DNA of 64,000 nt from Rhodospirillaceae bacterium (GTDB lineage Bacteria > Pseudomonadota > Alphaproteobacteria > Rhodospirillales > JABJKH01). The stretch is from the NCBI GenBank assembly GCA_018660465.1, contig JABJKH010000008.1, positions 74,398-138,397 of the forward strand, read 5' to 3'. The notes beneath the pieces are model-generated. The model did no database searches, was not told where the DNA came from, and worked only from the letters and a program-made list of their open reading frames with translations. The translations under genes and the position numbers were made by a program. This document shows, in pieces, positions 26,770-60,567 of the stretch; the stretch's first letter is position 1, and every line of letters begins with the position of its first letter.

Positions 26770-27783
26770 GTGAAACTCGGCAGTTTTAACACGAATGCTG
26801 AAGTCCTGATTATCGCCGAGATCGGTAATAATCATGAAGGTGATTTCGATCTCGCCCGTCGGTTGATTGACGAAGCGGCGGAAGCCGGAGTCCAGGCCGT
26901 AAAGTTTCAGACTTTTATTCCGGAGCACTATTCGAGCCAACTAGACTCAGACAGAATCGCAAAACTTAAGGGATTCCAGCTGAGCTTTGAACAGTTCGAG
27001 CAACTGGCTGATCATGCCAGAAAAGCCGGGCAGATGTTCATCTCGACTCCCTTCGATCTTGAGAGCGCGCGATTCTTAGGCGGCCTTGCCGATGGCATCA
27101 AAATCGCCTCAGGCGACAACACGTTCGGCCCGCTGATCAAGACCGTCGCTGAAACCAACAAGCCGATGATCGTGTCGACAGGGCTTGCCGATACCGCGCA
27201 AGTTCAAAACGCTGCCAAGCTTATTCAAGACACTTGGGATGCAAATGGATGCACAGCAGACTTGGCGATCCTGCACTGTGTCGCGAGTTATCCGGTGCCA
27301 CCGAAGGAAGCGAACCTGGCCGCGATTCCCATCCTGGCCGCCGCCTTAAACAATGTCACCATCGGTTATTCTGACCATACGTTAGGCGTGGACGCTCCTG
27401 TCCTGGCAGTGGCCTTAGGCGCGCGCATTGTCGAAAAACACTTCACCATCGACAACAATTATTCAGACTTCCGCGACCACCAAGTCTCTGCCAACCCCGA
27501 AACCCTGAAGGAAATGGTCAAGCGGATTAAGGATACAGAGGTATTCTTAGGCTCCGGTGCGATCGGCATGGAAGACTGCGAACAGCCCATAGAAGCCGCC
27601 ATCCGACGTTCCATCGTCGCCGCCCATAACTTGGCTGCGGGCCATAAGATTCTAGATACGGACATCACCTGGGTACGCCCCGGCGGCGGCATTCCGCCCG
27701 GAGAAGAAGATCGCGTGTTGGGCAAAGAGCTAACCCGCGCGATTAAGCCCGGCGAAATGATTTTGTCTGAAGATTTGGCGTAA
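26770..27783 (+). CDS. Nonulosonic acid synthase (NeuB/PseI/LegI family)
   Basis: ...VLIIAEIGNNHEGDFDLARRLIDEAAEAGVQAVKFQTF... plus a C-terminal SAF domain (...ITWVRPGGGIPPGE...IKPGEMILSEDL). GTG start. Sugar specificity is not resolvable by eye. Confidence 0.85.
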   Translation: MKLGSFNTNAEVLIIAEIGNNHEGDFDLARRLIDEAAEAGVQAVKFQTFIPEHYSSQLDSDRIAKLKGFQLSFEQFEQLADHARKAGQMFISTPFDLESARFLGGLADGIKIASGDNTFGPLIKTVAETNKPMIVSTGLADTAQVQNAAKLIQDTWDANGCTADLAILHCVASYPVPPKEANLAAIPILAAALNNVTIGYSDHTLGVDAPVLAVALGARIVEKHFTIDNNYSDFRDHQVSANPETLKEMVKRIKDTEVFLGSGAIGMEDCEQPIEAAIRRSIVAAHNLAAGHKILDTDITWVRPGGGIPPGEEDRVLGKELTRAIKPGEMILSEDLA

Positions 27784-31968: not shown

Positions 31969-31969
31969 C

Positions 31970-36296: not shown

Positions 36297-36419
36297 GTAT
36301 GGTGCCAATTGAAATTTTGTCTTAAGAATGGTACAGACCAAAGATAGCAAAACGCTATTGTCAAAGTTTCCCGTCGAGAATTAGACGGTGTAAGGTGTAC
36401 TCAGAACGAGGAGAAAGAG

Positions 36420-37508: not shown

Positions 37509-37526
37509 GCCTGCCCGCAGTTCATC

Positions 37527-38141: not shown

Positions 38142-38144
38142 GCC

Positions 38145-38891: not shown

Positions 38892-38913
38892 CAAAATACA
38901 GAAAGTTCGCTCC

Positions 38914-40100: not shown

Positions 40101-41264
40101 TTAATCCAACACCGGCTCAATGTCATAACCCACGACCATACGGTCCTGATCCGTATCACAGGGAACTGTGGAGTGTGACATATAAGATGGCCAAGCCAGC
40201 ATCATGCCCTCAACCGGCCGAATGGTACGGCGCTTATTTTCAAATCCGAGCGCAGACTGAAATAAGTTCTTGCCATATTCAATGCATCCCCGGTCGGTAT
40301 TTTCTGCATCTTCGACCTCGGGGACTTTGACGTAATAGTTTCCGACCATAAAACAATCAGAATGCACATGCGGTCCAGCATGGCCGCCGCCTCTTAAGCC
40401 GGCAGCAAACATTTCCAGTCGATAATTTTTCGGACGACGGCCGAAGCATTCATGTTCGGGGGCCGGCGAAGTCTCCGCAATTTTATCCAAAACGCTTTCC
40501 GCTCTTTCTTCAAAGACGGCTTCAAGCATACGTACAAACGGCCCTGGATTATCCCTGTTCAATCTTGATGCAATAAACCAGTTGCTCGATTGGACCTCGG
40601 TCCAGTGCTTATATTTTGGTGATTCACTGACTTCTGCATATAATCCTTCATTGAATTCCTTCGTGCTCATCCCGGCGATTGTTTCTTTTGGTTCGTAGAC
40701 CAAGGGGTAGGTATCAATATCCACCCATTTTCGGGCTGCCTTTTCATCGCCGACTTGCTCTTCTAAAACGGCTAATAAATTTATGACATAGGCAACCCAA
40801 TATTTAGTTTCCTGACAATTGGCCAGGCATTCGAGATATGATTCTCGTGCTTCGTCGAAACGCCCCTGTATGTGATACGCGAGCCCCAGATGGACCTTAT
40901 AAATTGGAACTGATGCAGGAAATTCTGCGGCACCATTCTCATTCTGTTTAATTTCTTCTAGAGTTTGAAGGGTGGCTGTTTCCATATAATGCGCTAATTC
41001 CGGATAAGATTTATCAAAACAATTTTTGAACTCATTTGTTTCAAACTCTGGCCGTGTTCGGAAGCAATATTGTAAAGATAAAGCGGCCTCCGAGAACCGT
41101 TGAGAGGCGAGCAGGATCATGGCCCCTAAAAGTACGCCTTCGTAATAATCAACATTTTCGGTTTTTATTTCCTCATGGATGCGCCTCGCCTTTTCAAAAT
41201 TTCCAACATTGATAAACTTTATCGCCCTGGATACTTTGGCGTCTAATTGTCTTGTTGGATCCAT
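40101..41264 (-). CDS. TPR-like N-terminal domain fused to a putative 2OG-Fe(II) oxygenase-like (PF13759/TIGR02466-like) domain
   Basis: The N-terminal half is helical and TPR-like (...HLGLAYHIQGRFDEARESYLECL...). The C-terminal part has ...GPHVHSDCFMVGNYYVKVP...IEYGKN...GMMLAWPSYMSHSTVP...RMVVGYDI, an H-x-(D/H)...H jelly-roll pattern. Confidence 0.55.
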   Translation of the reverse strand: MDPTRQLDAKVSRAIKFINVGNFEKARRIHEEIKTENVDYYEGVLLGAMILLASQRFSEAALSLQYCFRTRPEFETNEFKNCFDKSYPELAHYMETATLQTLEEIKQNENGAAEFPASVPIYKVHLGLAYHIQGRFDEARESYLECLANCQETKYWVAYVINLLAVLEEQVGDEKAARKWVDIDTYPLVYEPKETIAGMSTKEFNEGLYAEVSESPKYKHWTEVQSSNWFIASRLNRDNPGPFVRMLEAVFEERAESVLDKIAETSPAPEHECFGRRPKNYRLEMFAAGLRGGGHAGPHVHSDCFMVGNYYVKVPEVEDAENTDRGCIEYGKNLFQSALGFENKRRTIRPVEGMMLAWPSYMSHSTVPCDTDQDRMVVGYDIEPVLD

Positions 41265-41369: not shown

Positions 41370-42224
41370 ATGAGTGCACTCACAGAAAAAGAATTTATTG
41401 ATGTCCTTGCGGCGACGCTGCCTGTCGAGGATGAGATCATTGCGATCTATTCCGGGTTATGGACGTTCGCGCCGCAGTTTCGTTGGCCTGCAGAAGAGAT
41501 CGGGCCGAGGCTTCTCAAAATCATCGATGAGTTTGTTGGACCTGAGCGGACGCTTATTTTTCCAGCCTACAGCTATCTCGATTTCGCCCGTAACCGGACC
41601 TACGATTTAACCTTGAGCAAGCCTGAGACTGGCGTTCTTCCGGAATCAGCGCTTGCCGACAAAGCTTTCACCCGTTCACGTTCACCGATGAACAGTTATG
41701 CTGTTCGCGGGCCGCGCGCAGAAGAACTTTTGTCGTGCCCCTCCACCACAGCTTGGGGGCCAGACGGTGTTCTCGGTTGGATGTGTGAGGCGGATATTCG
41801 GATTAGCATTCTTGGTGTGTCGTGGTTGTCGTGCAGTTTGATGCATTACGCAGAGGAAACCCTGCAAGTCCCCTATCGCTATTACAAACGTTTCAAGGGG
41901 GAGATTTTTGATAACGGGAAATCGCTCGGCCCCTGCGAAGAAGTTATGTATTCGCGGTCTCTAAATGCGGTTCCTGAGTGGGATATTACCAGCCTGGGTC
42001 CGGCGCTTTCCGATGCCGGCGTGGTCTTGAAAAGTCCCAACCGTCGAATTCCCATGGAGTCCGCGAAGGCCTCAGAATTTCACCGGGTAAATGAAGCCAT
42101 GTTTGCGGCTGACCCGTACGTTTATCATGAAAACGTGGACGAGTTGAAAGCTTGGGTTGCGGACGGCAAAGAGGCTGAAATGGCGACGCTTAAACCTGAG
42201 GAACGTTGGCCGCCGCATGGATAG
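41370..42224 (+). CDS. AAC(3)-family (aminoglycoside N3-acetyltransferase-like) acetyltransferase
   Basis: ...IIAIYSGLWTF... ...TLIFPAYSY... ...TRSRSPMNSYAVRGPRAEELL... ...ILGVSWLSCSLMHYAEE... follows the Antibiotic_NAT fold pattern. In this context it is probably an amino-sugar N-acetyltransferase. Confidence 0.6.
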   Translation: MSALTEKEFIDVLAATLPVEDEIIAIYSGLWTFAPQFRWPAEEIGPRLLKIIDEFVGPERTLIFPAYSYLDFARNRTYDLTLSKPETGVLPESALADKAFTRSRSPMNSYAVRGPRAEELLSCPSTTAWGPDGVLGWMCEADIRISILGVSWLSCSLMHYAEETLQVPYRYYKRFKGEIFDNGKSLGPCEEVMYSRSLNAVPEWDITSLGPALSDAGVVLKSPNRRIPMESAKASEFHRVNEAMFAADPYVYHENVDELKAWVADGKEAEMATLKPEERWPPHG

Positions 42225-42237
42225 ACTTGAACTTCAC

Positions 42238-42362
42238 TCAGGCGTCCTTCGAGACGCGCTTTCAGCGCTCCTCAGGATGAAGGTTTTATTTTATTCCTAG
42301 AGATAGTAAGAAAATTTCTTCATCCTGAGGAGCCGCGTCAGCGGCGTCTCGAAGGACGCTGA
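42238..42362. repeat. About 125-bp imperfect inverted repeat (REP/MITE-like palindromic element) between convergent genes
   Basis: The arms are 42238-42282 and 42318-42362. Outer (cgtccttcgagacgc / gcgtctcgaaggacg) and inner (ctcctcaggatgaag / cttcatcctgaggag) 15-bp segments are perfectly complementary, with a mismatched core between them. Confidence 0.7.
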
Positions 42363-42389
42363 GCGGCACAGACAGGCGTTCTAGGAAAG

Positions 42390-43760
42390 CTAAGATAAAT
42401 TCGCCCGAAGCTTTTTAAAGCGCGCACTGTGAAGCGTTTCATCTTCCACCACGACAAACCGCACCGGCACTTTATAGCGCGCCATTGTTTTATTGCATTC
42501 TAACCGCAAGCGTTCGGAGAGGTCCGCTGGGTCTTCCGGCTCTATCAGTGAAACCCGAGCCTGCACCACCTGTCCCATAATCGGATGCGGTCGTGCTTCG
42601 ACGGCGGCGTTTCGGATGTTAGGGAGTTGCATGAGGACGTTCTCAACCTCCAGCGGAAATACCTTTTTACCGCCGGTATTTATCACTTCGGTTTCGCGTC
42701 CCATGAAGCGGATGTAGCCGTCTTTTTCTTCAACCACATCGCCGGTGCACAGCCAGCCTTCTTCATCGAACGGGTTCGGCGCATTGAGGTAGCCGACCAT
42801 GTTGGCTTCGGACCTGATCCACAGAATGCCATCGGTGATTCTGGTCTCAAACCCCTTGCCACCAACCTTAAGCCATAACGAACCATCGTCCTTAGATTGT
42901 GATCGCAGGACACCCAATTCCGACAACCCGTAGGTCTGTTTAATCCGCGCGCTCGGAAACACCTCACTAAGTTGACTAAGCGTCGTTTCCGGCATGGGCT
43001 CAGTCCCATAGGTAACCAGTTCCACAGACGACAAGTCGTAGACCGCGTATTGCCGGCTCACGATCATGAAATTCAAAAACGTTGGCGTCGTCGGCAGCAA
43101 CGTTACCTTTCCATCCTGAATGGTGCGCGCCATGGTTTCAGGATCGCGCGACGTGGTACAGACCGCCGTTCCGCCATAGGCAAAGCTCGATAGAAACGTA
43201 TTGAACCCGCCGAAGTGATCCATGAGTAAGAAAAGTATGGTGCGCCAGCCTTTGCGCTTTTCAACGAATTTACGGGCGACAAATTCGACGTCCTGCAAAA
43301 TTCCCTTGGGCTTGCCGGTCGATCCTGATGTGAACACCACGAGTCCCGGATGACCTTTTTCATTAAACGTACTGATCAATTCAGGCAGGACGCAATTAGG
43401 CTGTGCCTCCAATACAAAGTCATCGTTTTCATCGAAGCGGTATAGAACCTTCGCACCGCACATGTTTAAAAGTTCCGGCAGCTCCGCATCGACATCACCG
43501 GTCAACGGAACAAGCACTGCACCCCGTTGCATCAGCGCGAACATAAGCGCAGAGGTTGCCGGGCTGTAGTCGCCATAAAACGCGCAGACATCTCCGGCGT
43601 TGATGCCGTCTTCCTCAAGCCGTTTATTCCAAACCTCGATTGAGTCTAAGAATTCTTGATAGGTATATTCCCGGCCGCGCCAAAATAGGGCTGGATCATT
43701 CGGTATCTCAGAAAGCCGATTAATCAGTGTCTCAACTGCGGACGTCGTGGGTGCGGACAT
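42390..43760 (-). CDS. Adenylate-forming enzyme (acyl-CoA/acyl-ACP ligase family)
   Basis: AMP-binding motifs are present: VFTSGSTGKPKGI, QTYGLSELG, WLCTGDVVE, GRETEVINTGGKKVFPLEVE. The start overlaps the ACP stop. Confidence 0.8.
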   Translation of the reverse strand: MSAPTTSAVETLINRLSEIPNDPALFWRGREYTYQEFLDSIEVWNKRLEEDGINAGDVCAFYGDYSPATSALMFALMQRGAVLVPLTGDVDAELPELLNMCGAKVLYRFDENDDFVLEAQPNCVLPELISTFNEKGHPGLVVFTSGSTGKPKGILQDVEFVARKFVEKRKGWRTILFLLMDHFGGFNTFLSSFAYGGTAVCTTSRDPETMARTIQDGKVTLLPTTPTFLNFMIVSRQYAVYDLSSVELVTYGTEPMPETTLSQLSEVFPSARIKQTYGLSELGVLRSQSKDDGSLWLKVGGKGFETRITDGILWIRSEANMVGYLNAPNPFDEEGWLCTGDVVEEKDGYIRFMGRETEVINTGGKKVFPLEVENVLMQLPNIRNAAVEARPHPIMGQVVQARVSLIEPEDPADLSERLRLECNKTMARYKVPVRFVVVEDETLHSARFKKLRANLS

Positions 43761-44002
43761 CAGAAGCTCACTTGGTGTTCTTCAAGAACCATTTTGATTA
43801 ATGGAAAATTCAAAATTTCCACTGTCTGTTCCTCGGTAAACGAAATATCGAATTCCTGCTCCAACGCGAGGACGAGGTTCAAATGGCGGAGCGAATCCCA
43901 TTCTTCCACCGTATCAACGGATGTATCATCACCAATTTCTGATGCCTCAATCTTCAAGACATCGGCCATGACACGCTGCAATCTTTCTACGTTATTCGAC
44001 AT
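43760..44002 (-). CDS. Acyl carrier protein (ACP-1)
   Basis: 80 aa with phosphopantetheine site context ...TVEEWDSLRHLNLVLALE... The start is set at the internal ATG 44002 (GGAGAA SD), not 44047. Confidence 0.75.
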   Translation of the reverse strand: MSNNVERLQRVMADVLKIEASEIGDDTSVDTVEEWDSLRHLNLVLALEQEFDISFTEEQTVEILNFPLIKMVLEEHQVSF

Positions 44003-44016
44003 ATTTTCTCCTGTCT

Positions 44017-45858
44017 TTACTTTGGAAATTCTTCCATGTTGATCCACGCGGGGCAGATGATTTTATCTGCCTTTGTATTGGATAAATCCAGACACCATTC
44101 TGTGTCTTCAACTTGATCAAACCCACGTTTCTCATAAAATTCTGAAACTTGAGCGTTCTTCTTTGTTGGCAAATAACTGCCCGAGATTGTCTTACAACCC
44201 CTCGTACGCGCATTATCTATCACAAATTTTAAGAAAGCGTTTTCCGCCTCGCGACCAAGTGCACGACAGGACAGTAAAAAAGAATCTATCTCTGCCGTCT
44301 CGTCTTTATAGAGAATGATCGCAACCCCAATTGTACCAATCTCAGCCACGTTATCACCCAACCACATGGTAAGCACATCGCTGCCGTCACGATCACTGAA
44401 CGCCCGAATTTCGCCTTCGGTATATCGCTTGGTCGTGAGATTAAACTGGTTGGTTTTTTGGGTCAGTTGAGATGCTCGTGGAATTTGCTTTTCAGTCACC
44501 AAGCCAATTTTGGCCTTGATATCCAAACTCCCAAGATAGTCCTCCAACGACGAAGCGGTTTTGGATAGAGACTTGCGTTGGCGTTCTGCTTGGTAAGATT
44601 TATTGCGTTTCAGGTCGTCATCAGAAACAGTCAAATTATCGAACAAGCCCGCCTCCGATAACTGCCGCCGGAAGGACGATGGATCGCCGCTTAAATGAAG
44701 CACACCAACTTCCGGCAACGCGCCCCGAACCCGATCACATTCAAAGTCCGTATCATCAACAAACACCAGCGCATCAACACCGATATTCAGTTCGTCGGCA
44801 ATGCTGATAAGGTTTTCGGCCTTGTCGGACCAGTTGACCCGCAACGCCGCGAAATGATTTTCCTTTAGGACCATGTCCGGGTGATCTCGGAACACCTCCA
44901 ACACATCGTCCTCGTTGTTCTTTGAACAGACGGCAAGAATGACACCGCGATTATAAAGGTTGAGGACTTCACGTTGGAACGCGACGAAGGAATTTCCCGG
45001 GTATTCAAGGCCAAGACGAATGCCAGACAGACCGTCTTCACCGACGACCCCGCCCCATAAGGTTCCATCACAATCCAGCACCAAACACTTCCGGGCATGG
45101 CCGCTTAGAGCGCGGAAGAACCTGCCGTATTCTTGACCGACAGGCACCAGCGCGTTCTTGCCAATCGGCGCCTTTGCCATCGCCCAATACCGCTCATCGA
45201 AAGCAGATGCAGCACCCAGCCTTGCAAAAAGTCCTTGCAGATCAACGATGTAAACATCGCTGAATTCATTAGCCACCTCCGCCAAGCCCGTATTAAGCTT
45301 AACCATCGCCGCATTCTGCACCCCACCGCTTTGGGCTTCGATGATTCCCAGGGTGGGCCGATGCAGAATAGGAAAGTTATTGACCAAGACTCCCGCAGTT
45401 GTCTGATCTCTCAAAGCAGAAAACTGAGTCCTGAAATGATCGAGGACTCTCTCAATTTCCTGCTCGATGCCTTTTGCCCCCAACGACAAAATTTCGTTTT
45501 GCAAAGCTGGCGATAACAACTCAAGCCACTGAAACAAAATAATCGCATCGGCGTTATGACTAAAAAGATCACTTTTAGGACTAAAGATATCCTGTGCGAT
45601 GGTATCGAAATCACCAACATAAAATTTTGGCTGTAATCCCAAGAGCCCAATTTCGCCAGCTATGACAGGGAGAACGGGTTCGACCGTGATATTGCGCAAG
45701 ATCGCGACACGGTAATCCGTCGCCTCACCATCAGCCTGATCTTCTAAAATATTGCTAACCGACGTGTAGGCGGAATACACTTGTTCTTTACGCAACCGAT
45801 CCATGGCTTTGTTCAGGTCATCCATTCTCTCACCGCTTACTCTTCCATCTTCTGGCAT
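44017..45858 (-). CDS. FkbH-like HAD-IIIC phosphatase / glyceryl-transfer protein
   Basis: HAD-IIIC motif CLVLDCDGTLWGGVVGEDG and a C-terminal GNAT-fold domain with the conserved Cys motif FLLSCRALGRE, 613 aa. Confidence 0.75.
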   Translation of the reverse strand: MPEDGRVSGERMDDLNKAMDRLRKEQVYSAYTSVSNILEDQADGEATDYRVAILRNITVEPVLPVIAGEIGLLGLQPKFYVGDFDTIAQDIFSPKSDLFSHNADAIILFQWLELLSPALQNEILSLGAKGIEQEIERVLDHFRTQFSALRDQTTAGVLVNNFPILHRPTLGIIEAQSGGVQNAAMVKLNTGLAEVANEFSDVYIVDLQGLFARLGAASAFDERYWAMAKAPIGKNALVPVGQEYGRFFRALSGHARKCLVLDCDGTLWGGVVGEDGLSGIRLGLEYPGNSFVAFQREVLNLYNRGVILAVCSKNNEDDVLEVFRDHPDMVLKENHFAALRVNWSDKAENLISIADELNIGVDALVFVDDTDFECDRVRGALPEVGVLHLSGDPSSFRRQLSEAGLFDNLTVSDDDLKRNKSYQAERQRKSLSKTASSLEDYLGSLDIKAKIGLVTEKQIPRASQLTQKTNQFNLTTKRYTEGEIRAFSDRDGSDVLTMWLGDNVAEIGTIGVAIILYKDETAEIDSFLLSCRALGREAENAFLKFVIDNARTRGCKTISGSYLPTKKNAQVSEFYEKRGFDQVEDTEWCLDLSNTKADKIICPAWINMEEFPK

Positions 45859-45860
45859 GG

Positions 45861-46799
45861 CTAAGCATGCTCCAAGAGGCCGCAGTAATTTATCGTGATC
45901 AGCTCCTCAGCCCAACTGCTTTCAGGAACATTTTCCGCTGGCAACGCTAAATCTGAAACGATCTTGAAACCTGCATCCGTGATCAGGTCTCGAATTTCCT
46001 CGGCTGAATGGAAATGATAGACGTGATCCAGCGCCGGGCAATTGGCGCACGTCGACATATAGGCTTGGCCATTTGGTGCCAGCAACTGCTTCGTCCGATC
46101 CATAAACTTTGGCGCATCGTTCACATGCTCCAGGACTTCACCCAGGATAATAAAATCAAAAGTCTGAGACCCGAGATCGGTTTTCAAGTAATCCCCGTGC
46201 ACAAAATTCAGTCGGGATTCATCGACGTTAAACGCTTTAAGAACTTCGCCTGCAGTCTTTATGGATGTTTCGCTGATATCAACGACCGTGCCGATGGCTT
46301 CATCAAACTTGGTCAACGTTGTGGACGTGAACAATCCATGACCGACACCTACCTCTAGGTAGTTCTTCACCTCACCTTTCGGCAATTTATCCAAGAAGAA
46401 CCGGAACAGTTCGTAGTGGTTGGGCCAGAACATGTAGGAGATCAGCAATCCAACCATGTAATACCGCATGACCACCAAATCACTGTAGACCTCGTCAACT
46501 GCGACGGCAGAATCGTCTATCGAATATTTGCCAGTTTTGCGGAATTGAATCTGTGCCGACAAAAAATCCATGCACATTTTGTTGTAAGACCGCGCTGCTT
46601 CCTGGCGCGCGTCATCAGTTGTCAGGAAGCCATTGTTCAGGATCAGGCTTAAGTTTTCAGCAAATTCCCAATATTCAGGACCGCGTGTCGTAAAAAAAGC
46701 CTCAATCCGCTTTTTTTGGAGCGGGTTCTCTGCGGCGATTAGCTCCGCGATGCGCAATAATTCGGGGCAGGAGTCTTGAGTCATCAGGCTAAATTCCAT
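45861..46799 (-). CDS. Class I SAM-dependent methyltransferase
   Basis: ...YLEVGVGHGLFTS... (motif I) and ...FDFIILGEVLEHVNDAPKF... The start is trimmed to Met at 46799 and remains uncertain (alternatives 46784 and 46883). Confidence 0.7.
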   Translation of the reverse strand: MEFSLMTQDSCPELLRIAELIAAENPLQKKRIEAFFTTRGPEYWEFAENLSLILNNGFLTTDDARQEAARSYNKMCMDFLSAQIQFRKTGKYSIDDSAVAVDEVYSDLVVMRYYMVGLLISYMFWPNHYELFRFFLDKLPKGEVKNYLEVGVGHGLFTSTTLTKFDEAIGTVVDISETSIKTAGEVLKAFNVDESRLNFVHGDYLKTDLGSQTFDFIILGEVLEHVNDAPKFMDRTKQLLAPNGQAYMSTCANCPALDHVYHFHSAEEIRDLITDAGFKIVSDLALPAENVPESSWAEELITINYCGLLEHA

Positions 46800-46988
46800 A
46801 ACGCCACAGGCATTGGTAACTTTCCGACAATTCCACCCCAGGCAAAACCACCCCTGGCGGCAAGATAATAACGGAATTTTCACCTTTGCTACTTAAGTTT
46901 GAACACCATGATAAAATCCCTTCCTTGATAAAGAGTTACCGGAAGGACGACTTGAAAAATTAAAGTAGCTAATGAACGGAAAAAATTG

Positions 46989-47294
46989 ATGCTGGATAAG
47001 CAATTAGCAATGAATTTGATGCAGGAAAGCCTGGACAGTCTTGCCCGGTCCGGAACCCTGAAAAATCAGATAGCAATGACCGATGAAACCGTCCTGATGG
47101 GAAGCGGCGCCGACAGCGGCCTGGACTCCCTCGGATTTGTTAATTTCGTCATGGACGTGGAAGACCGCCTTCAGCAACAATTAGACGGCGACTATCCGGT
47201 AATTCTGACCGACATCGGCGGGTTTGATATCAACAATCCGATCCTTACCGCTGGCGTGCTTGCTGATCATTTGGTCGGCCTCGCTGCTGGCTAA
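46989..47294 (+). CDS. Acyl carrier protein (ACP-2)
   Basis: About 101 aa with the classic attachment motif ...GADSGLDSLGFVNFVMDVE... It is the first gene of the rightward operon. Confidence 0.65.
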   Translation: MLDKQLAMNLMQESLDSLARSGTLKNQIAMTDETVLMGSGADSGLDSLGFVNFVMDVEDRLQQQLDGDYPVILTDIGGFDINNPILTAGVLADHLVGLAAG

Positions 47295-47295
47295 T

Positions 47296-48012
47296 ATGAA
47301 CACCGACAAACAGCATTGCGTTATTTCCGGCACCAGCCGGGGATTAGGACGCGCCTTGGCGGAGCATTTTCTGGGCCTAGGGTATTCGGTCGCTGGCTGC
47401 AGCCGGGGTGACGCAACGATAGATCATCCCGACTATTCCCACAGCGTCGTCGATGTCCGCGATGAAGCCGAGGTTCAAAAGTGGGCGCGGGATGTACGGC
47501 GCGAGGCAACCCGTGTAGATGTCTTAATTTGCAACGCAGGACTGGCGCGTTCAGCACTCTTTCTACCCATGACACCAGGCGACGTGTTTGAGGATTTTCT
47601 GGGGACGAATTTCGCGGGCGTATTCTACGTTCTGCGCGAATTCTCCAAGCTCATGATCCGCCAAGGGTCTGGACGTATTTTAACAATCTCATCAACAATG
47701 GCGGCCCTTCACCAGGAAGGTACGGCGGTCTACTCAGCGACGAAATCAGCCGTCACTGAAATGACCAAGGTCTTGGCCCGCGAACTGGCACCGCAGAACA
47801 TTACCTGCAACATCATTGCGCCTGCGATGATGGAAACTGATGCGTCTGCAGAACTGGCAAAGTCGGAAGAATGGCGCGACCAAATGCTCGCGCTTCAGAC
47901 CTTCCCCAGAATTATTGAGATGCAAGAAATCTGTCATGCCGCCGATTTCTTTGTTTCCGACAAAGCCGCCAGCATCACCGGACAAGTCGTCTACATCGGA
48001 CTGGTGGATTAG
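47296..48012 (+). CDS. SDR-family oxidoreductase (3-oxoacyl-ACP reductase-like)
   Basis: VISGTSRGLGRALA cofactor motif and catalytic YSATKSAV (YxxxK). The start is set at ATG 47296, right after the ACP-2 stop. Confidence 0.8.
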   Translation: MNTDKQHCVISGTSRGLGRALAEHFLGLGYSVAGCSRGDATIDHPDYSHSVVDVRDEAEVQKWARDVRREATRVDVLICNAGLARSALFLPMTPGDVFEDFLGTNFAGVFYVLREFSKLMIRQGSGRILTISSTMAALHQEGTAVYSATKSAVTEMTKVLARELAPQNITCNIIAPAMMETDASAELAKSEEWRDQMLALQTFPRIIEMQEICHAADFFVSDKAASITGQVVYIGLVD

Positions 48013-48013
48013 C

Positions 48014-48709
48014 GTGAACAGCCCAGCCCGCCGCATCGCAACCGCTGACGACTATCAGGTCGAAACCATTAAAACTGGCCGCTGGAAGGAAAATTCCTAC
48101 GTGGTTCAACACGTGGCGAGCCGGGAAATTGCGCTTATTGATCCGGGCAACGACGCAGACGCGATATTCGAGAGCATCGAACATATGGACGGCATTCCGA
48201 AGCTGGTCTTATTAACCCACGCGCATTTCGATCATGTCGGCGCACTTGATGCGGTCTGCACGCGCTACGATCTGCCGTTTTACATTCATTCAGGCGATCA
48301 CCGCCTGCTGCAACGCGCAACCCTGTATGCCATGAGTTTCGAGCGCCAAGTGGTGACAATCCCGGAGGGCTATCAACCCTTGGAAACCTCAACCCCGTCC
48401 TGGTCCGGTGACCCGGTAGAGTTTATCCACACCCCAGGGCATACGGACGGTGGGGTATGTTATTATTGGGACGGTATTTGTTTCTCCGGTGACACCCTTC
48501 TGAATAAACTTGTGGGCCGATCGGACTTACCTGGATCAAGCGGCGAAGGCCTTAAGAAATCTGTCAGTAAGTTACTCGACTCTCTACCACCTGATACGTT
48601 GTTGTTTCCTGGACATGGTGGGACTTGGTCGGTTGCAGATGCGCGTAGCTGGTGGCAAGACTATTCAGAAGACCCGCCACAGTATGCCATGGAAGGCGCT
48701 TTTAAATGA
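48014..48709 (+). CDS. MBL-fold metallo-hydrolase (glyoxalase II-like; possible thioesterase)
   Basis: LLTHAHFDHVGAL (HxHxDH) plus downstream ...HTPGHTDGG... and ...FPGHG. GTG start at 48014, directly after the SDR stop. Confidence 0.7.
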   Translation: MNSPARRIATADDYQVETIKTGRWKENSYVVQHVASREIALIDPGNDADAIFESIEHMDGIPKLVLLTHAHFDHVGALDAVCTRYDLPFYIHSGDHRLLQRATLYAMSFERQVVTIPEGYQPLETSTPSWSGDPVEFIHTPGHTDGGVCYYWDGICFSGDTLLNKLVGRSDLPGSSGEGLKKSVSKLLDSLPPDTLLFPGHGGTWSVADARSWWQDYSEDPPQYAMEGAFK

Positions 48710-49716
48710 TCGCCCCGCTGATGAGAGACGACTACGGCGTGGGCGTGGCTGGAGTTGGAAAATTCCTGCCCGAAGGCGTCATTACGAACGAAAGCCTTGA
48801 AGCAACGTCCGGCATGAAAGCAGCTGAAATCGTTGAGAAAACTGGCATCGTCACCCGGCGCAAAGCATCCGAAGACGACGTCGCATCGGAAATGTGTGCC
48901 GCTGCCGCCCGGGATGCGATGGAGATGGCAGGCATTGAGCCCGAACAACTGGGCCAGATCATCACCTGCACGTTTACCGGCGATTATACCTACCCCGCCG
49001 TATCGTGCCGCATCCAGGATTTGTTAGGGGCCTATAACGCAGGCGTCTTTGATTTGATGGCGAATTGCACCGGGTTTCAAGTTGGCCTGGGCGTTGCCTC
49101 TGACCGCATGCTTGTTGATCCGAGCGTTGAGTACTCGCTGGTCATTGGTGCCGCTCTACAATCCAGGTTTATCGATTATTCGAAGGCTGGCTCTGCGATG
49201 TATTTCGGTGATGGCGTGGGGGCTGCTGTGTTGAAGCAAGTGCCCGCCGGTTATGGCATTCTTTCCAACGATGTGTCGGCAAATGGTCGCGCTTTCAATT
49301 CGGTTCGTTTGAGAGGCGGCGGTTCCAGCCATCCTATGCGACCAGATAACATCAACGAGGGCCTGCAGTATTATGACATCGACGGGCTGGAAGTCTGGAA
49401 GCAAGTCGTCCAGAACCAACCCAAATCAATGCGCCGAGCGCTGGAAAAAATTGGCAAGACCACAGAAGACGTGGACTTCTTTATTTTCCATCAAGCCAAC
49501 CTGCGCCTGATTGAATTTCTCATGGGGAAAATGCGGCTGCCCATGGACAAGACCTATACCAATGTCGAAGAATACGGCAACACGGCGGACGCATCTCAGG
49601 CGATTACGCTCTGTGATGCGGTCACGAACAATCTCTTAAAGCGCGACGATCTTGTCGCAATTTCGGGGGTTGGTGCCGGGTTCATCTTTGGGACAACCAT
49701 GATGAGGTGGTATTGA
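48706..49716 (+). CDS. 3-oxoacyl-ACP synthase III (FabH-like KAS III)
   Basis: Cys-His-Asn triad contexts are present: ...DLMANCTGFQVG..., ...FIFHQANLRLIE..., ...YGNTADASQ... ATGA overlap with the upstream gene. Confidence 0.8.
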   Translation: MIAPLMRDDYGVGVAGVGKFLPEGVITNESLEATSGMKAAEIVEKTGIVTRRKASEDDVASEMCAAAARDAMEMAGIEPEQLGQIITCTFTGDYTYPAVSCRIQDLLGAYNAGVFDLMANCTGFQVGLGVASDRMLVDPSVEYSLVIGAALQSRFIDYSKAGSAMYFGDGVGAAVLKQVPAGYGILSNDVSANGRAFNSVRLRGGGSSHPMRPDNINEGLQYYDIDGLEVWKQVVQNQPKSMRRALEKIGKTTEDVDFFIFHQANLRLIEFLMGKMRLPMDKTYTNVEEYGNTADASQAITLCDAVTNNLLKRDDLVAISGVGAGFIFGTTMMRWY

Positions 49717-50978
49717 TGACTTACAACCCAGATGACCGCCAAGCTGCTGAATTAAAGTTTTCTGATCTCCATGAAGGGTATCAATCCGAACTTTCGCACA
49801 CCATTTCGCAAGATGATCTCAACACCTTCGCCGCCCTCACGGGTGACTTTAATCCCATTCATATTGATGCGGAATACGCCCGCACGACATCGTTTGGAAA
49901 ACCCATCGTGCATGGCATGCTGACGTCTTCGTTTATCTCTACGATGATCGGCATGCTGTTGCCCGGTCGAGGCGCTCTGTGGATGGAGCAAACTCTAAAA
50001 TTCACAAGACCCGCCTTTGTTGGCGATTCGATAAGAGTGGTGGCGACTGTCAAACAGCTCTCTACCGCGACCAACACCATGGTCCTAGACGTAAAAATTT
50101 CCAATCAAGACGACACCACCATTGTCACCGGCCAATCCACCGTAACCCTGACTGCAGGGAAAACTGCGGATGAAGCAGCTGCAACCGATGCAAAGCCCAT
50201 CGAAGCCCCGCAAAGTAGCAAGAATAAAGAAGCGACAGGTGGAGTCATTTTTATTTCCGGCGGCAGTGGTGGCATCGGGGCTGCATGCGCTAAAAACCTC
50301 GCAGCCCAAGGATATGCCATCGCGGTAAACTATAATTCGAACCAAAAAGGTGCAGATGCGGTGGTCGCCGAAATATCTGCTGCGGGAGGCCAAGCCATTT
50401 CTGTCCAAGGCGATGTCGCCAGTGAAGCCGATGTCGAAAGAATTTTTTCTGATATTGAAAGCCAATTAGGCACCGTGTCAGGGATCGTTCACTGCGCAGC
50501 CCCTGAGCCCATCCCGACTGCCTTCGAAGACACAAACTGGGCAATATTCGAAGCGACCCTTTCGACCCAAATCGGCGGTGCCCGCCACTGCACCCATCGC
50601 GCGCTTGCAAACATGATGGAGAACTCGACAGGCAGTATCGTCCTTATTGGATCAATCTACGGCGATAACGTGCCACCTGCGATGCAGTCCGCTTATGTAA
50701 CGGCGAAGGCCGCACTCGCGGGGTTCTCTCGGGCTCTTGCTGTTGAATTGGGGCCAAAGGGAATTCGCGTTAATGTCGTCGCCCCTGGCATGACGCAAAC
50801 ACCGATGCTGGCGAACCTACCGAACAAAGCAAAGATGTTGGCGCAGATGAATACGCCGCTGCGCCGTCTTGCTGACCCAGAAGACATTGCCAACGCGGTC
50901 GCGTTTCTCATCAGCGATAACGCGCGTCATATTACTGGCGAAACCCTGCATGTTTCTGGTGGAGTTTCGATGTCGTAA
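49716..50978 (+). CDS. MaoC-like (R)-hydratase/dehydratase fused to an SDR ketoreductase
   Basis: N-terminal hot-dog hydratase-2 motif FAALTGDFNPIHIDAEYA. The C-terminal SDR has ISGGSGGIGAACA and YVTAKAAL. The ATG overlaps the KAS III stop (TGATG). Confidence 0.75.
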   Translation: MTYNPDDRQAAELKFSDLHEGYQSELSHTISQDDLNTFAALTGDFNPIHIDAEYARTTSFGKPIVHGMLTSSFISTMIGMLLPGRGALWMEQTLKFTRPAFVGDSIRVVATVKQLSTATNTMVLDVKISNQDDTTIVTGQSTVTLTAGKTADEAAATDAKPIEAPQSSKNKEATGGVIFISGGSGGIGAACAKNLAAQGYAIAVNYNSNQKGADAVVAEISAAGGQAISVQGDVASEADVERIFSDIESQLGTVSGIVHCAAPEPIPTAFEDTNWAIFEATLSTQIGGARHCTHRALANMMENSTGSIVLIGSIYGDNVPPAMQSAYVTAKAALAGFSRALAVELGPKGIRVNVVAPGMTQTPMLANLPNKAKMLAQMNTPLRRLADPEDIANAVAFLISDNARHITGETLHVSGGVSMS

Positions 50979-50979
50979 A

Positions 50980-52332
50980 TTACGGCTGCTCTACTTCCTC
51001 AAGCAGGCCCACACGACTGAATTCCCGCACACATTCATCAAACGCGAAAATCGGCATGTCGTTGTCTTCGGCGATTTGCAGCAAGTCCTTGGAACCATCA
51101 GCCTCGCCCATCATGGCGTAGTATGCGTTGCCAATCACTGTGCCCTGCCCGCCCGTGCCCCAGCCGTGTTGGTAGGGAAAGACGCCGTACTTGGATAAAA
51201 ATGGCGTAACCTGATAGGTGCCTTTGTAGCGGCGCGTCCGTTCCACGGTCATCAATGCGGCCCACGCAACTTGTAGAGATTCCAGTAAATATTCAGGCCG
51301 AACCAATTCTAGATCGTCCGCTGAGGAATGATATTCCGCATATCCCCCCGGCCGAGACCCGCCTCGGGTAATATTCGCAACTGCCAAGCGATAGCCGACA
51401 CTGTTCAGGTGCAGCACGTCGGCCCCGCCATAAATATTAAATTTCCGAGTGACCACTTCACGGCCACAAAATTCCATCGCGTGCTTTACGGCACGGTCGA
51501 ATATCGTATCACCGGCAAACGTCTGATCGAGGCTCACCGGCGCACCATCACCGCAAATTCCCAACTGATAACCGCCAATGGTTTTCGCCAAGCGTTCGGG
51601 GTAATTGGCCATGTAGGCAATCACCCCAATGCCTTCGGGCCACAGTGCCAAGCGGTACGAATAATGCCGGTCTGGCATTTCAGCCAGCATGCGAAAAATC
51701 TCCACCGCCGCGACCACGCCAGATAGATTATCGTTGGCGCCACGGGGATGGCAGAGATAGCTGTTAATTAGGATTTCTTCTTCGACTTCACCCGGAAGAT
51801 AGGCTTCTCCAATCCGTAAAACCCCATCATAGAGATCCGTATCGATATGAACCTTATAGCGCCCGGGCTTTAATTCCTCCACCAAATCATAAGGGGCCGA
51901 CAGCCCCCAAGCCTCCCGGTAATAGGTCTGACGCATAGGATAGGCATGGGGCAGATTTGGATCAGTCGCAATTTTTTCTTTTAATTCGTCCAGGTCCATT
52001 TCACCGCTGAACGACTGACTGTAGATCCATACACAATAGGGATGAATGTCAAAGTCCAGCACCCGCGTCCCGTCCGGTCCTTCAACCCAAGCCTCATTGA
52101 CCTTGAATTCCTTGGGGATGGTCCAGTCGAACACTTCTTGCCCAGAGGGAAACTCCGTCACCTCCAAGGGCAAATATTTATCAATGACATCGAGCGAGTC
52201 TTTATACCCAGGCCCCAAAAGAGACCGATAGATGGGAAACAACGCCTCCATCATCGACCACATGGACTGGGAATTCTTTTCCCCCGGCATGGTAAGCCCC
52301 GGGAAACCGACAAAATTGCCTTCTGCGTTCAT
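50980..52332 (-). CDS. Aminopeptidase-like domain protein (DUF2172/DUF4910, COG4310-type 'polysaccharide biosynthesis protein with aminopeptidase-like domain')
   Basis: ...MWSMMEALFPIYRSLLGPGYKDSLDVIDKYLPLEVTEFPSGQEVFDWTIPKEFKVNEAWV... matches my memory of this family's N-terminal region. 450 aa. Confidence 0.55.
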   Translation of the reverse strand: MNAEGNFVGFPGLTMPGEKNSQSMWSMMEALFPIYRSLLGPGYKDSLDVIDKYLPLEVTEFPSGQEVFDWTIPKEFKVNEAWVEGPDGTRVLDFDIHPYCVWIYSQSFSGEMDLDELKEKIATDPNLPHAYPMRQTYYREAWGLSAPYDLVEELKPGRYKVHIDTDLYDGVLRIGEAYLPGEVEEEILINSYLCHPRGANDNLSGVVAAVEIFRMLAEMPDRHYSYRLALWPEGIGVIAYMANYPERLAKTIGGYQLGICGDGAPVSLDQTFAGDTIFDRAVKHAMEFCGREVVTRKFNIYGGADVLHLNSVGYRLAVANITRGGSRPGGYAEYHSSADDLELVRPEYLLESLQVAWAALMTVERTRRYKGTYQVTPFLSKYGVFPYQHGWGTGGQGTVIGNAYYAMMGEADGSKDLLQIAEDNDMPIFAFDECVREFSRVGLLEEVEQP

Positions 52333-54484: not shown

Positions 54485-54492
54485 CCTTTCAT

Positions 54493-60030: not shown

Positions 60031-60567
60031 ATGGCGACAGCACCTCAAATAGAAACCCAACACCTGCGACTGGTCGCCTTTTCTGAAAAGCATTTGGCGG
60101 AACGCTATGTCAGCTGGCTGAATGACCCTGATGTTGTTCGATATAGTGAGCAACGCCATGACACGCATACATTGGAAAGCTGTCGCGAATTCTTGAAATC
60201 CTTCGACGACACGCCGAATTTGTATTGGGCGATTGAAGAAACTGCGACCGGCCGCCACATCGGTAATATCGACGCCCACATTGACGCGCCAAACAAAGTT
60301 GCCGACGTTGGCATCGTCCTAGGTGAGAAAGAAATTTGGGGCAAAGGCTATGGCTTTGAGGCTTGGACTGGCGTGCTGGATTATCTTCTTGGTCCTGGCG
60401 ACATGCGCAAGGTGACGGCTGGCACCATGGCAACCAACGTCGGAATGCTGGGCATTATGCGTAAGGCCAGGATGGTGGAGGAAGGCAGGCGGCTAAAAAA
60501 TTACCTTCTGGATGGCAAGGAAGTCGATCTCATCCTGGTTGCACGGTTTGCTGATGACCAAGACTGA
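60031..60567 (+). CDS. GNAT family N-acetyltransferase (RimJ/RimL-like)
   Basis: ...IETQHLRLVAFSEKHLAERYVSWLNDPDVVRYSE... and ...WGKGYGFEAW..., typical of the Acetyltransf_3 type. Confidence 0.75.
   Translation: MATAPQIETQHLRLVAFSEKHLAERYVSWLNDPDVVRYSEQRHDTHTLESCREFLKSFDDTPNLYWAIEETATGRHIGNIDAHIDAPNKVADVGIVLGEKEIWGKGYGFEAWTGVLDYLLGPGDMRKVTAGTMATNVGMLGIMRKARMVEEGRRLKNYLLDGKEVDLILVARFADDQD

Follow-up and report, generated by a model that had tools for sequence, protein, structure and literature searches.

A putative glycerate-derived acyl-donor module with two carrier proteins in an alphaproteobacterial flagellin glycosylation island

Introduction

Unusual N-acyl groups on pseudaminic and legionaminic acids affect flagellar assembly, phage recognition and immune evasion. 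To our knowledge, the source of acyl groups such as di-O-methylglyceroyl has been unexplained since their discovery in 2009-2010. A flagellar region of a Rhodospirillaceae bacterium raises the question of whether such a group could be built from glycerate on carrier proteins, and by which enzymes. This region is a stretch of 64,000 nucleotides of contig JABJKH010000008.1 (assembly GCA_018660465.1, positions 74,398 to 138,397), here called the window; coordinates are counted from its first letter. In 42390-46799 the initial annotation placed an operon of four coupled minus-strand genes, for a methyltransferase, an FkbH-family enzyme, an acyl carrier protein (ACP) and an adenylating ligase, and read it as a glyceryl-ACP loading operon.

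The present analysis favours, with moderate confidence, a larger system, namely a glycerate-derived acyl-donor module with two carriers that would decorate a flagellar amino sugar. Such a system would resemble a short assembly line, in which carrier proteins provide the acyl group for a sugar amine. The evidence consists of the FkbH enzyme and its carrier, the active sites of a second, divergent gene arm, and the co-inheritance of both arms across bacteria.

Arrangement of the two gene arms

The two arms and the region between them comprise the following features.

45861..46799, minus strand: class-I S-adenosylmethionine (SAM)-dependent methyltransferase, 312 aa, first gene of the minus-strand arm (Methyltransf_23)
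44017..45858, minus strand: FkbH-family enzyme, 613 aa (TIGR01686, HAD-IIIC, FkbH_N)
43760..44002, minus strand: ACP1, 80 aa, the dedicated carrier of FkbH (PP-binding; Ser37)
42390..43760, minus strand: adenylate-forming (ANL) ligase, 456 aa, accessory module member (AMP-binding, AMP-binding_C)
46800..46988, no strand: divergent intergenic region between the methyltransferase arm and the ACP2 arm (gene layout)
46989..47294, plus strand: ACP2, 101 aa, second, atypical carrier (conserved motif, Ser48)
47296..48012, plus strand: FabG-like ketoreductase (KR), 238 aa, classical short-chain dehydrogenase/reductase (SDR) (adh_short_C2)
48014..48709, plus strand: metallo-beta-lactamase (MBL)-fold hydrolase of the glyoxalase-II type, 231 aa (Lactamase_B, GloB)
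48706..49716, plus strand: FabH-type 3-ketoacyl-ACP synthase (KAS) III, 336 aa (NF006829, 8VD9)
49707..50978, plus strand: MaoC dehydratase fused to a KR-type SDR (MaoC-SDR), 420-423 aa (MaoC_dehydratas, adh_short_C2)

The four minus-strand open reading frames (ORFs) all lie as listed within 42390-46799, and their coupling is borne out when the junctions are read base by base. The methyltransferase stop (TAG, 45863-45861) is followed by "cc" and then by the FkbH ATG at 45858. Between the FkbH stop (TAA, 44019-44017) and the ACP1 ATG at 44002 lies a 14-nt spacer with AGGAG, 6 nt 5' of the ATG. The ACP1 stop (TGA, 43762-43760) overlaps the ligase ATG at 43760 (TGATG). The methyltransferase start is ambiguous (ATG 46799, ATG 46784 or the ORF-maximal GTG 46883), and public gene calls give 312 or 307 aa.

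The view of these genes as a self-contained operon does not hold. They form one arm of a conserved divergent pair, of which the other arm is ACP2-FabG-MBL-FabH-MaoC/SDR, and so amount to half of a conserved module of ten genes. The initial annotation also left two flanking genes unlinked to the cassette, a putative Cj1295-family gene at 50980-52332 and an AAC(3)-like gene at 41370-42224. The unit should be widened to 11 genes, 41370-52332. The same divergent layout is present in nine related loci, which are given L numbers here (L005-L007, L087, L089, L090, L093, L095 and L139), and 46800-46988 presumably holds a shared bidirectional promoter region. A scan of 42100-47300 for consensus promoters (sigma-70) and terminators gave nothing above shuffled expectation, and no site in 46800-46988.

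The FkbH enzyme and its carrier ACP1

By all sequence and fold criteria applied, the 613-aa protein is a member of the FkbH family. It matches the FkbH domain model TIGR01686 with 292.6 bits (cutoff 146.65) over profile positions 2-320 of 323, the HAD-IIIC model TIGR01681 with 61.5 bits (cutoff 35.75), and Pfam FkbH_N with 42.2 bits (cutoff 27). ACP1 matches PP-binding with 28.4 bits (cutoff 20.8) and has its phosphopantetheine site, Ser37, in EEWDSLRH. All profile matches for FkbH, HAD-IIIC and PP-binding are thus above their cutoffs, and the absence of a significant FkbH or HAD-IIIC match, which by the initial annotation would have refuted its reading, was not observed. The motifs quoted in the initial annotation are present, LVLDCDGTLWGG at residues 259-270 and LLSCRALGR at residues 528-536. 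The HAD motif D262-C-D-G-T (DCDGT, 262-266) is accompanied by VDD at 367-369. In an alignment of 23 homologues (47-70% identity), D262, C263, D264, D368, D369, S530, C531 and R532 are invariant.

An AlphaFold (AF2) model, built on the 23-sequence alignment (mean pLDDT 85), comprises three domains, which are an N-terminal domain, HAD-IIIC, and a C-terminal domain with GNAT fold. The modelled N-terminal and HAD part superposes on 3SLR (TMt 0.87), and the HAD domain also on MDP-1 HAD phosphatases. 3SLR, an uncharacterised N-terminal fragment of Bacteroides BF1531, is the sole solved sequence relative of the protein. Cys531 is placed in a strand-helix loop (CRALGRE) of the modelled GNAT domain, at the pantetheine-binding position of GNAT enzymes. 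This modelled architecture is what one would expect if a cysteine accepts an acyl group and then hands it on to a phosphopantetheine arm. The cysteine of FkbH-type enzymes is reportedly catalytic, and is said from work on OzmB to carry the acyl intermediate. The catalytic residues of FkbH are not described in the bafilomycin paper.

The assignment of an FkbH-type enzyme with its own ACP is therefore upheld by the full architecture, the invariant cysteine and the adjacent ACP1. On the basis of strong homology, FkbH and ACP1 are predicted to be a glyceryl-ACP loader that converts 1,3-bisphosphoglycerate into glyceryl-S-ACP1. In known systems FkbH and an ACP give glyceryl-ACP, which is used by FabH-like enzymes (PMC7489565).

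Active sites of the divergent arm

ACP2 has no Pfam match and only a weak ACP NCBIfam match. When ACP2 is aligned with its orthologues of 15 further loci, among them a marine group of 23-25% G+C content (GC), the motif G-x-S-x-LDS-[IL]-GFV-x-F, with Ser48, is seen to be kept. FabG matches adh_short_C2 with 149 bits and the 3-oxoacyl-ACP reductase model TIGR01830 with 152.7 bits, the latter below the equivalog cutoff, and has the active site S...Y146xxxK (YSATK).

FabH passes the cutoff of NF006829 (267.7 bits, cutoff 249), and its best match in the PDB is the FabH structure 8VD9 (E=4e-54). The triad Cys121-His262-Asn292 is intact, with the motifs CTGF, HQAN and GNT, and orthologues are 54-79% identical across phyla. 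Because the triad is intact and the KAS III cutoff is passed, FabH is predicted to be a decarboxylative condensing enzyme. An acyltransferase role in the style of CerJ/ChlB or DpsC was considered and is disfavoured, given the intact triad, the closeness to housekeeping FabH and the KR and dehydratase (DH) partners.

The MaoC-SDR fusion matches MaoC_dehydratas with 83 bits and adh_short_C2 with 203 bits. Its hydratase-2 motif, FAALTGDFNPIHIDAEYA, is complete. Among solved structures, those of FabG are the nearest to the SDR half, which has Y330VTAK, of the KR type, and no Yx6K. A role of this half as enoyl reductase is disfavoured for the same reason, and in fact both SDRs of the arm are of the KR type with YxxxK and neither resembles an enoyl reductase.

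The MBL-fold protein matches Lactamase_B with 89.6 bits as well as GloB families, and its nearest structures are glyoxalase-II-like (2ZWR, 7L0B, 2XF4). De novo clustering finds homologues, 56% identical to the window copy, in 24 module loci. The protein is a candidate thioesterase that would release or edit a carrier-bound 2-hydroxyacyl group. This role fits since the glyoxalase-II group hydrolyses 2-hydroxyacyl thioesters.

Co-inheritance of the two arms

Metagenomes were scanned with FabH as the seed. Loci in which FabH has 6 kb or more of sequence on either side were retained, and 21 distinct ones remained after the removal of duplicates. The other genes occur among these as follows.

FkbH: 21/21 loci (within 10 kb)
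ACP1: 21/21 loci
FabG: 21/21 loci
MaoC-SDR: 20/21 loci
Methyltransferase: 16/21 loci
Ligase: 14/21 loci
NeuB: 10/21 loci (within 10 kb of the module)
DegT: 9/21 loci
DUF4910: 4/21 loci
AAC(3)-like: 4/21 loci

In the FkbH-less loci of at least 9 kb, FabH is always within ~3 kb of a contig end. FabH remains associated with FkbH where FabH identity is as low as 43% and where the host GC is 23-25%, the metagenome contigs spanning 23-56% GC.

A converse sample was seeded with FkbH. Homologues of this protein are numerous (7984 matches at E<1e-10), and 80 loci from many phyla, one genome per species, were drawn with two narrow peptide patterns and searched by tblastn with every island protein. An ACP1 homologue is beside FkbH in 74/80, whereas the methyltransferase (13), FabH (8) and the ligase (7) are much less frequent. 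FabH is thus always found with FkbH (21/21), while FkbH is mostly found without FabH (FabH in ~10% of the FkbH-seeded loci). This asymmetry suggests that FabH works on the FkbH product, and FabH most likely acts downstream of glyceryl-ACP.

Close orthologues of the methyltransferase and the ligase are always accompanied by the divergent operon of ACP2, FabG, MBL, FabH and MaoC-SDR. The full or near-full module is present in Rhodospirillales, Gemmatimonadota (Gemmatimonadaceae), Solirubrobacterales, Vicinamibacterales, an Acidovorax metagenome-assembled genome, Bacteriovoracaceae and metagenomic relatives. In some loci, including L098, L102 and L107, it is a single co-directional operon, and in L091, L092, L094, L096, L099 and L140 FabH is directly 3' of FkbH-ACP1. 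De novo clustering added three members to the module, which are the MBL, a carrier of the ACP2 type in 21 further loci, and a small GNAT resembling PseH in 22. Near the module it also found PseF-like and PseG-like genes and class-III aminotransferases, and FdtA with DegT in six loci. These six (L091, L092, L098, L102, L107 and L140) have FdtA, a 3,4-ketoisomerase, and DegT in place of NeuB, which suggests a dTDP-3-amino-3,6-dideoxyhexose pathway; sugars of this kind would there be supplied by the same acyl donor.

A compact module, in the AT-rich locus L148, has the order methyltransferase, MaoC-SDR, FkbH, ACP1, GNAT, methyltransferase, ACP2, FabG, FabH, then NeuB, and lacks the ligase and the MBL. 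The module core is FkbH, ACP1, MaoC-SDR, FabH, FabG, ACP2 and the methyltransferase. The ligase and the MBL are accessory genes found in the window's own subgroup, and DUF4910 with AAC(3), or the GNAT, are alternative candidates for the attachment. The module, with its two carriers, is probably horizontally mobile across phyla. Two further features of L148 are a second methyltransferase (5067-6107) with AprA MT2-like and AprA winged-helix domains, of a type acting on carrier-bound substrates, and a pyruvate-kinase barrel domain alone (12505-13509), downstream of the nonulosonic acid genes.

Methyltransferase and ligase

The methyltransferase matches Methyltransf_23 (58 bits) and Methyltransf_11 (53 bits), with weak sub-threshold matches to UbiG and BioC, and has a helical N-terminal extension of ~130 aa. 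Orthologues of 53-72% identity lie directly 5' of FkbH in module loci. It is a candidate O-methyltransferase for a carrier-bound hydroxy acid.

The ligase matches AMP-binding with 129.7 bits and AMP-binding_C with 40.4 bits. All ANL core motifs are present (TSGSTGKPK144, YGLSE277, TGD339, GRETE354), and the nearest structures are acyl-CoA, feruloyl-CoA and 4-chlorobenzoate ligases. Among solved structures, a search found no characterised close relative of the methyltransferase, the AAC(3)-like protein or the ligase, and no substrate is assignable from it. The ligase is present in 15/17 module loci of the "hi", fatty acid synthase (FAS)-like subgroup versus 1/6 "lo" loci; L084 has it coupled to a carrier of the ACP2 type, and L008 has it inside the ACP2 operon. 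Because of this tracking and coupling, the ligase is assigned to ACP2 or coenzyme A (CoA), its probable role being to load a carboxylic acid, or to activate it anew, on a carrier, with ACP2 favoured, or on CoA. The initial annotation had given the ligase a second acid to load. The co-variation with the FAS-like/ACP2 arm loosely agrees with this, and the ligase does not track FkbH.

The flagellin glycosylation setting

The window covers a flagellar region of an alphaproteobacterium, an uncultured host represented by a marine metagenome-assembled genome, and encodes FlgE-like, FlgI, FlgK, FlaF and FlbT proteins. Flagellin is encoded at 23649-24827, a Maf flagellin glycosyltransferase at 20291-22273, and an FlmG-like TPR-GT41 protein at 18232-20274. 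The island further comprises three cytidylyltransferase domains, two DegT aminotransferases, a WbuX/HisH/HisF amidotransferase trio and several acyl- and methyltransferases. The placement of the cassette in a glycosylation island is confirmed by Maf, flagellin, NeuB and the CMP-transferases of the window. The features that flank the two arms or give their context are listed here.

50980..52332, minus strand: DUF4910/DUF2172 aminopeptidase-like protein with a C-terminal winged helix-turn-helix, 450 aa (DUF4910)
41370..42224, plus strand: AAC(3)-family (Antibiotic_NAT) N-acyltransferase-like protein, 284 aa, convergent with the ligase (Antibiotic_NAT)
42242..42359, no strand: imperfect palindrome, 118 nt, between the ligase and AAC(3) stops (arm complementarity)
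26770..27783, plus strand: NeuB-family nonulosonic acid synthase, context (NeuB, SAF)
60031..60567, plus strand: small PseH-like GNAT, 178 aa, context (Acetyltransf_3)

NeuB matches Pfam NeuB with 224.5 bits and has a SAF domain, and presumably makes the backbone of the acceptor sugar. Its scores are below both equivalog cutoffs (PseI, 236 versus 340; NeuB/LegI, 294 versus 400), so the stereochemical series of the nonulosonic acid is not assignable. In the window, L006, L089, L090, L095 and L139 the module is located between flagellin/Maf and NeuB pathway genes. In relatives it is adjoined by NeuB, PseF-like, PseG-like and PseH-like genes, DegT and FdtA.

The DUF4910 protein matches DUF4910 with 213.7 bits, DUF2172 with 70 bits and Peptidase_M28 with 23.7 bits, and its match in the PDB is 3K9T from C. 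acetobutylicum (E=2e-67). This species is listed as having a Cj1295-family member (Hitchen et al., PMC3068675). DUF4910 flanks the module in L005-L007, L084, L087, L089, L090, L093, L095 and L139. With the same family description as Cj1295 (PIRSF015244), it is a candidate de-N-acetylase in an acyl swap. The AAC(3)-like protein matches Antibiotic_NAT with 69.1 bits and, weakly, AAC(3) structures. Its orthologues (59-61% identity) have the same position in L005-L007, L089, L090, L093 and L139, and in L084 the gene is beside DUF4910. It is a candidate N-acyltransferase for installing the new acyl group, and the two proteins are likely an acyl-swap pair of deacetylase and re-acylase.

The small GNAT at 60031-60567 (Acetyltransf_3, 72.8 bits) is a candidate alternative acyltransferase. 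A small PseH-like GNAT is inside the module in 22 other loci; the window GNAT gave no tblastn match at E<1e-3 with a representative of that cluster. Where a lineage has such a GNAT within the module, the 4-amino intermediate is more likely to be acylated directly.

Several other features of the region are recorded as observations. FlmG-like and Maf represent two kinds of putative flagellin glycosyltransferase and are encoded back to back, and flagellin may receive more than one kind of glycan. Two partial nonulosonic acid gene sets are present (26770-40023 and 53609-60567). A fusion of TPR and 2OG-Fe(II) oxygenase (40101-41264) has the WbuX amidotransferase on one side and the AAC(3)-like gene on the other; it is lineage-specific, with no homologue in 160 related loci, and could hydroxylate the sugar, the acyl group or flagellin. 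DUF4910 is separated from the second sugar-gene block by a lone gene for a family-3 periplasmic solute-binding protein (52616-53401), which lacks neighbouring transporter genes and has no homologue in the related loci. Two sizeable ORFs of the flagellar and glycosylation region lack any match in Pfam (15185-17350, 721 aa; 22516-23337, 273 aa), and the former follows FlgK, where an FlgL-type protein is expected. The palindrome at 42242-42359 has outer arms of 16 nt (100% complementary) and inner arms of 27 nt (81%) and is single-copy in the window. It is probably a bidirectional terminator or hairpin element, and may alternatively be a small repeat element.

Other FkbH-ACP pairs in polysaccharide loci

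Most other FkbH-ACP pairs are in polysaccharide loci. Their neighbours are glycosyltransferases, sulfotransferases, GNAT/FemAB-like and hexapeptide acyltransferases, and UDP-Glc dehydrogenase. To judge from these neighbourhoods, FkbH-ACP pairs look widespread as acyl donors for glycans, and no pair characterised in this role came to light.

On S. meliloti pSymB (L165 10588-15623; CP140955.1 1048481-1053516) an MBOAT, a 409-aa protein, an ACP and an FkbH-like protein (37% identity to the window FkbH) are encoded together, ~4 kb from KPS export genes. The 409-aa protein is annotated as "TonB-dependent receptor", probably a misnomer. The set resembles an extracytoplasmic O-acylation system of the Dlt/Alg kind, with an FkbH-ACP pair as its supply. 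A different neighbourhood, around position 10000 in L011-L083 (Acidobacteriota, Planctomycetota and others), has a 373-aa protein without Pfam match directly 3' of the ACP in 25 loci. Its other members are an upstream Glyoxalase_4 protein (19), GNAT/FemAB-like Acetyltransf_6 proteins (19) and sulfotransferases (17 and 15).

Proposed pathway

FkbH would capture the glyceryl group of 1,3-bisphosphoglycerate on Cys531, a step that homology supports. The HAD-IIIC domain (Asp262/Asp264) would remove the 3-phosphate, and the glyceryl group would be passed to the phosphopantetheine on Ser37 of ACP1. The initial annotation proposed that a glycerate unit built on ACP1, possibly O-methylated, is then placed on an amino group. 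The loading part of this proposal is retained by homology. Direct O-methylation and transfer is probably not the route, as FabH, the two KR-type SDRs and MaoC, obligately linked to FkbH, point to further processing of the glyceryl group, probably by dehydration and reduction and/or elongation by C2.

Obligate co-inheritance and the integrity of the active sites suggest that this remodelling would be done by the divergent arm. MaoC-SDR could act on glyceryl-ACP1 because a glyceryl thioester is a 3-hydroxyacyl thioester; it would dehydrate the 3-hydroxyl to give pyruvoyl and re-reduce this to lactyl-ACP1. In a condensation by FabH, the primer on ACP1 would be joined to malonyl carried by ACP2. 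Reduction of the resulting 3-keto group would fall to FabG, and the capping of a hydroxyl to the methyltransferase. The net product would be a short O-methylated hydroxy-acyl thioester, either C3 and (di-)O-methylglyceroyl-like or a C5 dihydroxy- or methoxy-pentanoyl. In this lineage, the MBL and the ligase may release and re-activate, or proofread, the acid on ACP2 or CoA. As gene context and C. jejuni genetics suggest, the DUF4910 protein would remove the N-acetyl group from a nonulosonic acid precursor. The new acyl group would then be attached by either the AAC(3)-like transferase or a GNAT of the PseH type, and Maf and/or the FlmG-like transferase would put the CMP-activated sugar on flagellin.

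A more specific version of the pathway is offered only tentatively. In it, the two carriers serve a miniature assembly line in which the glycerate from FkbH is dehydrated, reduced and extended with malonate by FabH to a new C5 acyl group (3,4-dihydroxy- or methoxy-pentanoyl). The whole would be a mobile cassette, widespread across phyla, that provides N-acyl groups for nonulosonic acids and 3-amino-3,6-dideoxyhexoses.

Several points weigh against the proposed module. Every step past glyceryl-ACP1 is an inference, and 1,3-bisphosphoglycerate is the predicted substrate of the glycan-type FkbH homologues on the basis of homology only. The proven product of a related locus, that of C. jejuni, is the C3 group di-O-methylglyceroyl, which needs no FabH, KR or DH, and the FAS-like genes might serve otherwise. 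In the window the ligase is translationally coupled to ACP1 and not to ACP2. The attachment step is lineage-specific, with DUF4910 and AAC(3) in 4/21 distinct loci only, and the FkbH-seeded sample is biased to one subfamily by its peptide patterns.

Alternative explanations

The two arms might make two independent acyl groups, an explanation that is judged rather unlikely while deserving attention. The methyltransferase, FkbH and ACP1 would give (di-)O-methylglyceroyl-ACP1, in line with the initial annotation, and ACP2, FabG, FabH and MaoC/SDR with the ligase a second substituent, 3-hydroxybutanoyl or butanoyl; the arms would travel together via N5 and N7 of one nonulosonic acid. Nonulosonic acids do have two N-acyl positions, the C. 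jejuni product is plain C3 di-O-methylglyceroyl, and the window encodes a pair of carriers together with several acyltransferase candidates (AAC(3)-like, DUF4910, GNAT). Trios of methyltransferase, FkbH and ACP without FabH exist (L014, L015, L023, L025 and L059), and the 3-hydroxybutanoyl group on the viosamine of Pseudomonas syringae flagellin is made by FabH/FabG pairs, which speaks for the same explanation. If the arms were independent, FabH without FkbH would be expected sometimes, yet FkbH is in 21/21 loci over the full range of FabH identity and GC. The FdtA/DegT-linked dTDP-3-amino-3,6-dideoxyhexose has one amino group only, and the six loci with FabH directly after FkbH-ACP1 likewise argue for a joint pathway. 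A role of the module in modifying some other glycoconjugate (capsule, O-antigen or S-layer glycan), with its position in a flagellar island being incidental, is improbable. Other lineages do pair it with Wzx-like flippases, glycosyltransferases or FdtA/DegT and not with flagellar genes, and FkbH-ACP pairs of Acidobacteria and S. meliloti are in polysaccharide loci. The location between flagellin/Maf and NeuB genes in the window and five relatives opposes this, and the annotated part of the window contains no flippase, polymerase or export genes.

An assignment of the FkbH-like protein as a HAD phosphatase only (for example of a sugar phosphate or a nonulosonate-9-phosphate), or as an acyltransferase for another substrate, without any glyceryl-ACP, is distinctly improbable. 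In its favour, the sole solved relative, 3SLR, is annotated as an uncharacterised phosphatase-domain protein, and public annotations read "HAD family hydrolase". Against this stand the full-length match to the FkbH model including the C-terminal acyl-transfer half, the invariant cysteine at the GNAT pantetheine-loop position, and the dedicated ACP, which is almost always adjacent. A secondary-metabolite cassette, making a methoxymalonyl- or hydroxymalonyl-ACP extender for a polyketide synthase (PKS) or forming a tetronate, has hardly any probability left. It is brought to mind by the tetronate core of FkbH, ACP and FabH-like protein and by the methoxymalonyl-ACP set of FkbH, ACP and O-methyltransferase. 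The window has no gene of the FkbK, FkbI, PKS, nonribosomal peptide synthetase or Agg4/Agg5 type, its methyltransferase is not of the FkbG (Methyltransf_3) type, its FabH is above the cutoff for ordinary KAS III, and the conserved neighbours are sugar-nucleotide genes. A glycerate-derived acyl donor with two carriers is retained as the favoured reading.

Significance

The first step of the proposed route is known chemistry. What is new are the partners (FabH, KR, DH-KR and a second carrier) and the proposed destination, a nonulosonic acid on flagellin and other amino sugars. The locus and its relatives supply a defined enzyme set (FkbH, ACP1, FabH, FabG, MaoC-SDR, ACP2 and the methyltransferase) with catalytic residues. 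They tie FkbH, a natural-product enzyme family, to glycobiology, with a cassette that reaches at least six phyla and two kinds of amino-sugar pathway. Thousands of "HAD family hydrolase" genes in polysaccharide loci could be reinterpreted. If the C5 reading is true, a polyketide-like route feeds bacterial glycans, beyond the supply of glyceroyl groups.

Comparison with known systems

In C. jejuni 11168, Cj1295 is required for Pse5(2,3-di-O-methylglyceroyl)7Ac on flagellin (Hitchen et al., PMC3068675). Cj1295 is an aminopeptidase-like "polysaccharide biosynthesis" protein, proposed to remove the N5-acetyl group and so allow its replacement, and its neighbour Cj1296/7 is tabulated as an N-acetyltransferase (PMC3068675). 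Another study describes cj1302 as an fkbH-domain gene in the flagellin glycosylation locus, and reports that the glycans designated DMGA are missing in strain 12664, where cj1302 is a pseudogene, and in strain 12661, which has no cj1301 (Sacher et al., PMC7099621). The Campylobacter precedent named in the initial annotation is thus real (PMC3068675, PMC7099621), and its remark that no enzyme-level description of such a route is known agrees with the open-access literature, where none was found. In that literature the sole link found between the FkbH family and glycans is the one-line fkbH annotation of PMC7099621, which draws no biosynthetic link between cj1302 and the DMGA glycan; fabH2 is listed under O-linked glycosylation in one paper. 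The link of FkbH to the Campylobacter glycan could be guessed from existing annotation.

Compared by descriptions, C. jejuni cj1295-cj1304 and the window share a flagellin island, nonulosonic acid genes, Maf, an fkbH-domain gene, a gene described as of the DUF2172 family and an adjacent N-acetyltransferase-like gene. The C. jejuni locus presumably also has acpP2, acpP3, fabH2, a SAM methyltransferase and an adenylating enzyme with a third ACP. On the same comparison, the MaoC-SDR fusion and the glyoxalase-II-type MBL are additional in the window. In the C. jejuni set, cj1295 is the sole gene tested by knockout. The C. jejuni product has 2,3-di-O-methylglyceroyl on N5 of pseudaminic acid; the window module has one methyltransferase and a NeuB below the PseI cutoff. 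A search from the AT-rich FkbH gave no named Campylobacter entry among its matches, and the FkbH-seeded genome sample, drawn with narrow patterns, contained no Campylobacter.

The FkbH/FkbJ systems for methoxymalonyl-ACP (FK520, bafilomycin, and tetromadurin with Mad14/Mad12) have the same three-domain FkbH, an adjacent standalone ACP and an operonic methyltransferase. OzmB also belongs among the FkbH-type enzymes of methoxymalonyl-ACP. In contrast to these systems, the window is without FkbK, FkbI and PKS, its methyltransferase is of the Methyltransf_23/11 and not the FkbG type, and the context is one of sugar nucleotides and flagellin. The acyl group would presumably end in an amide with a sugar amine and not in polyketide extension. 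The methoxymalonyl-ACP pathway (FkbG-K type) was rejected for the window, since the annotated part has no FkbK or FkbI family match and the methyltransferase is of the wrong class.

The glycerate-utilisation operon of tetronates comprises an FkbH-like protein, an ACP, a FabH-like protein, Agg4 and Agg5 (Mad7/Mad8/Mad16, PMC7489565). There and here an FkbH-like protein, an ACP and a KAS III are linked; the KAS III depends on the FkbH product there and would do so here. The window FabH, in contrast, is near housekeeping FabH with a full triad, and a KR, a DH-KR, a second carrier and a methyltransferase replace the Agg4 acyltransferase and the Agg5 eliminase, with no polyketide partner. A tetronate cassette was rejected, as the window has no Agg4/Agg5-like or PKS genes and its FabH is of the ordinary KAS III type.

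In an FkbH loading module, 1,3-bisphosphoglycerate and an ACP give D-lactyl-ACP (PMC7901079). Such loading modules of trans-AT PKSs (bryostatin-type) use FkbH, a dehydratase and a ketoreductase on a carrier-bound glyceryl group, similar to what is proposed for the window. The window DH, by contrast, is MaoC (hydratase-2) in a free-standing SDR fusion and not a PKS domain, and would act on glyceryl-ACP1.

Flagellin islands of Aeromonas group II contain an ACP, FabG and an AMP-ligase inside the glycan locus, like the window (PMC7874193). The Aeromonas sets differ in being without FkbH and FabH and in having LuxC/LuxE-type enzymes instead. V. cholerae O1 RfbK-O, for N-(3-deoxy-L-glycero-tetronyl)perosamine, is likewise a carrier-based acyl system in a glycan locus.

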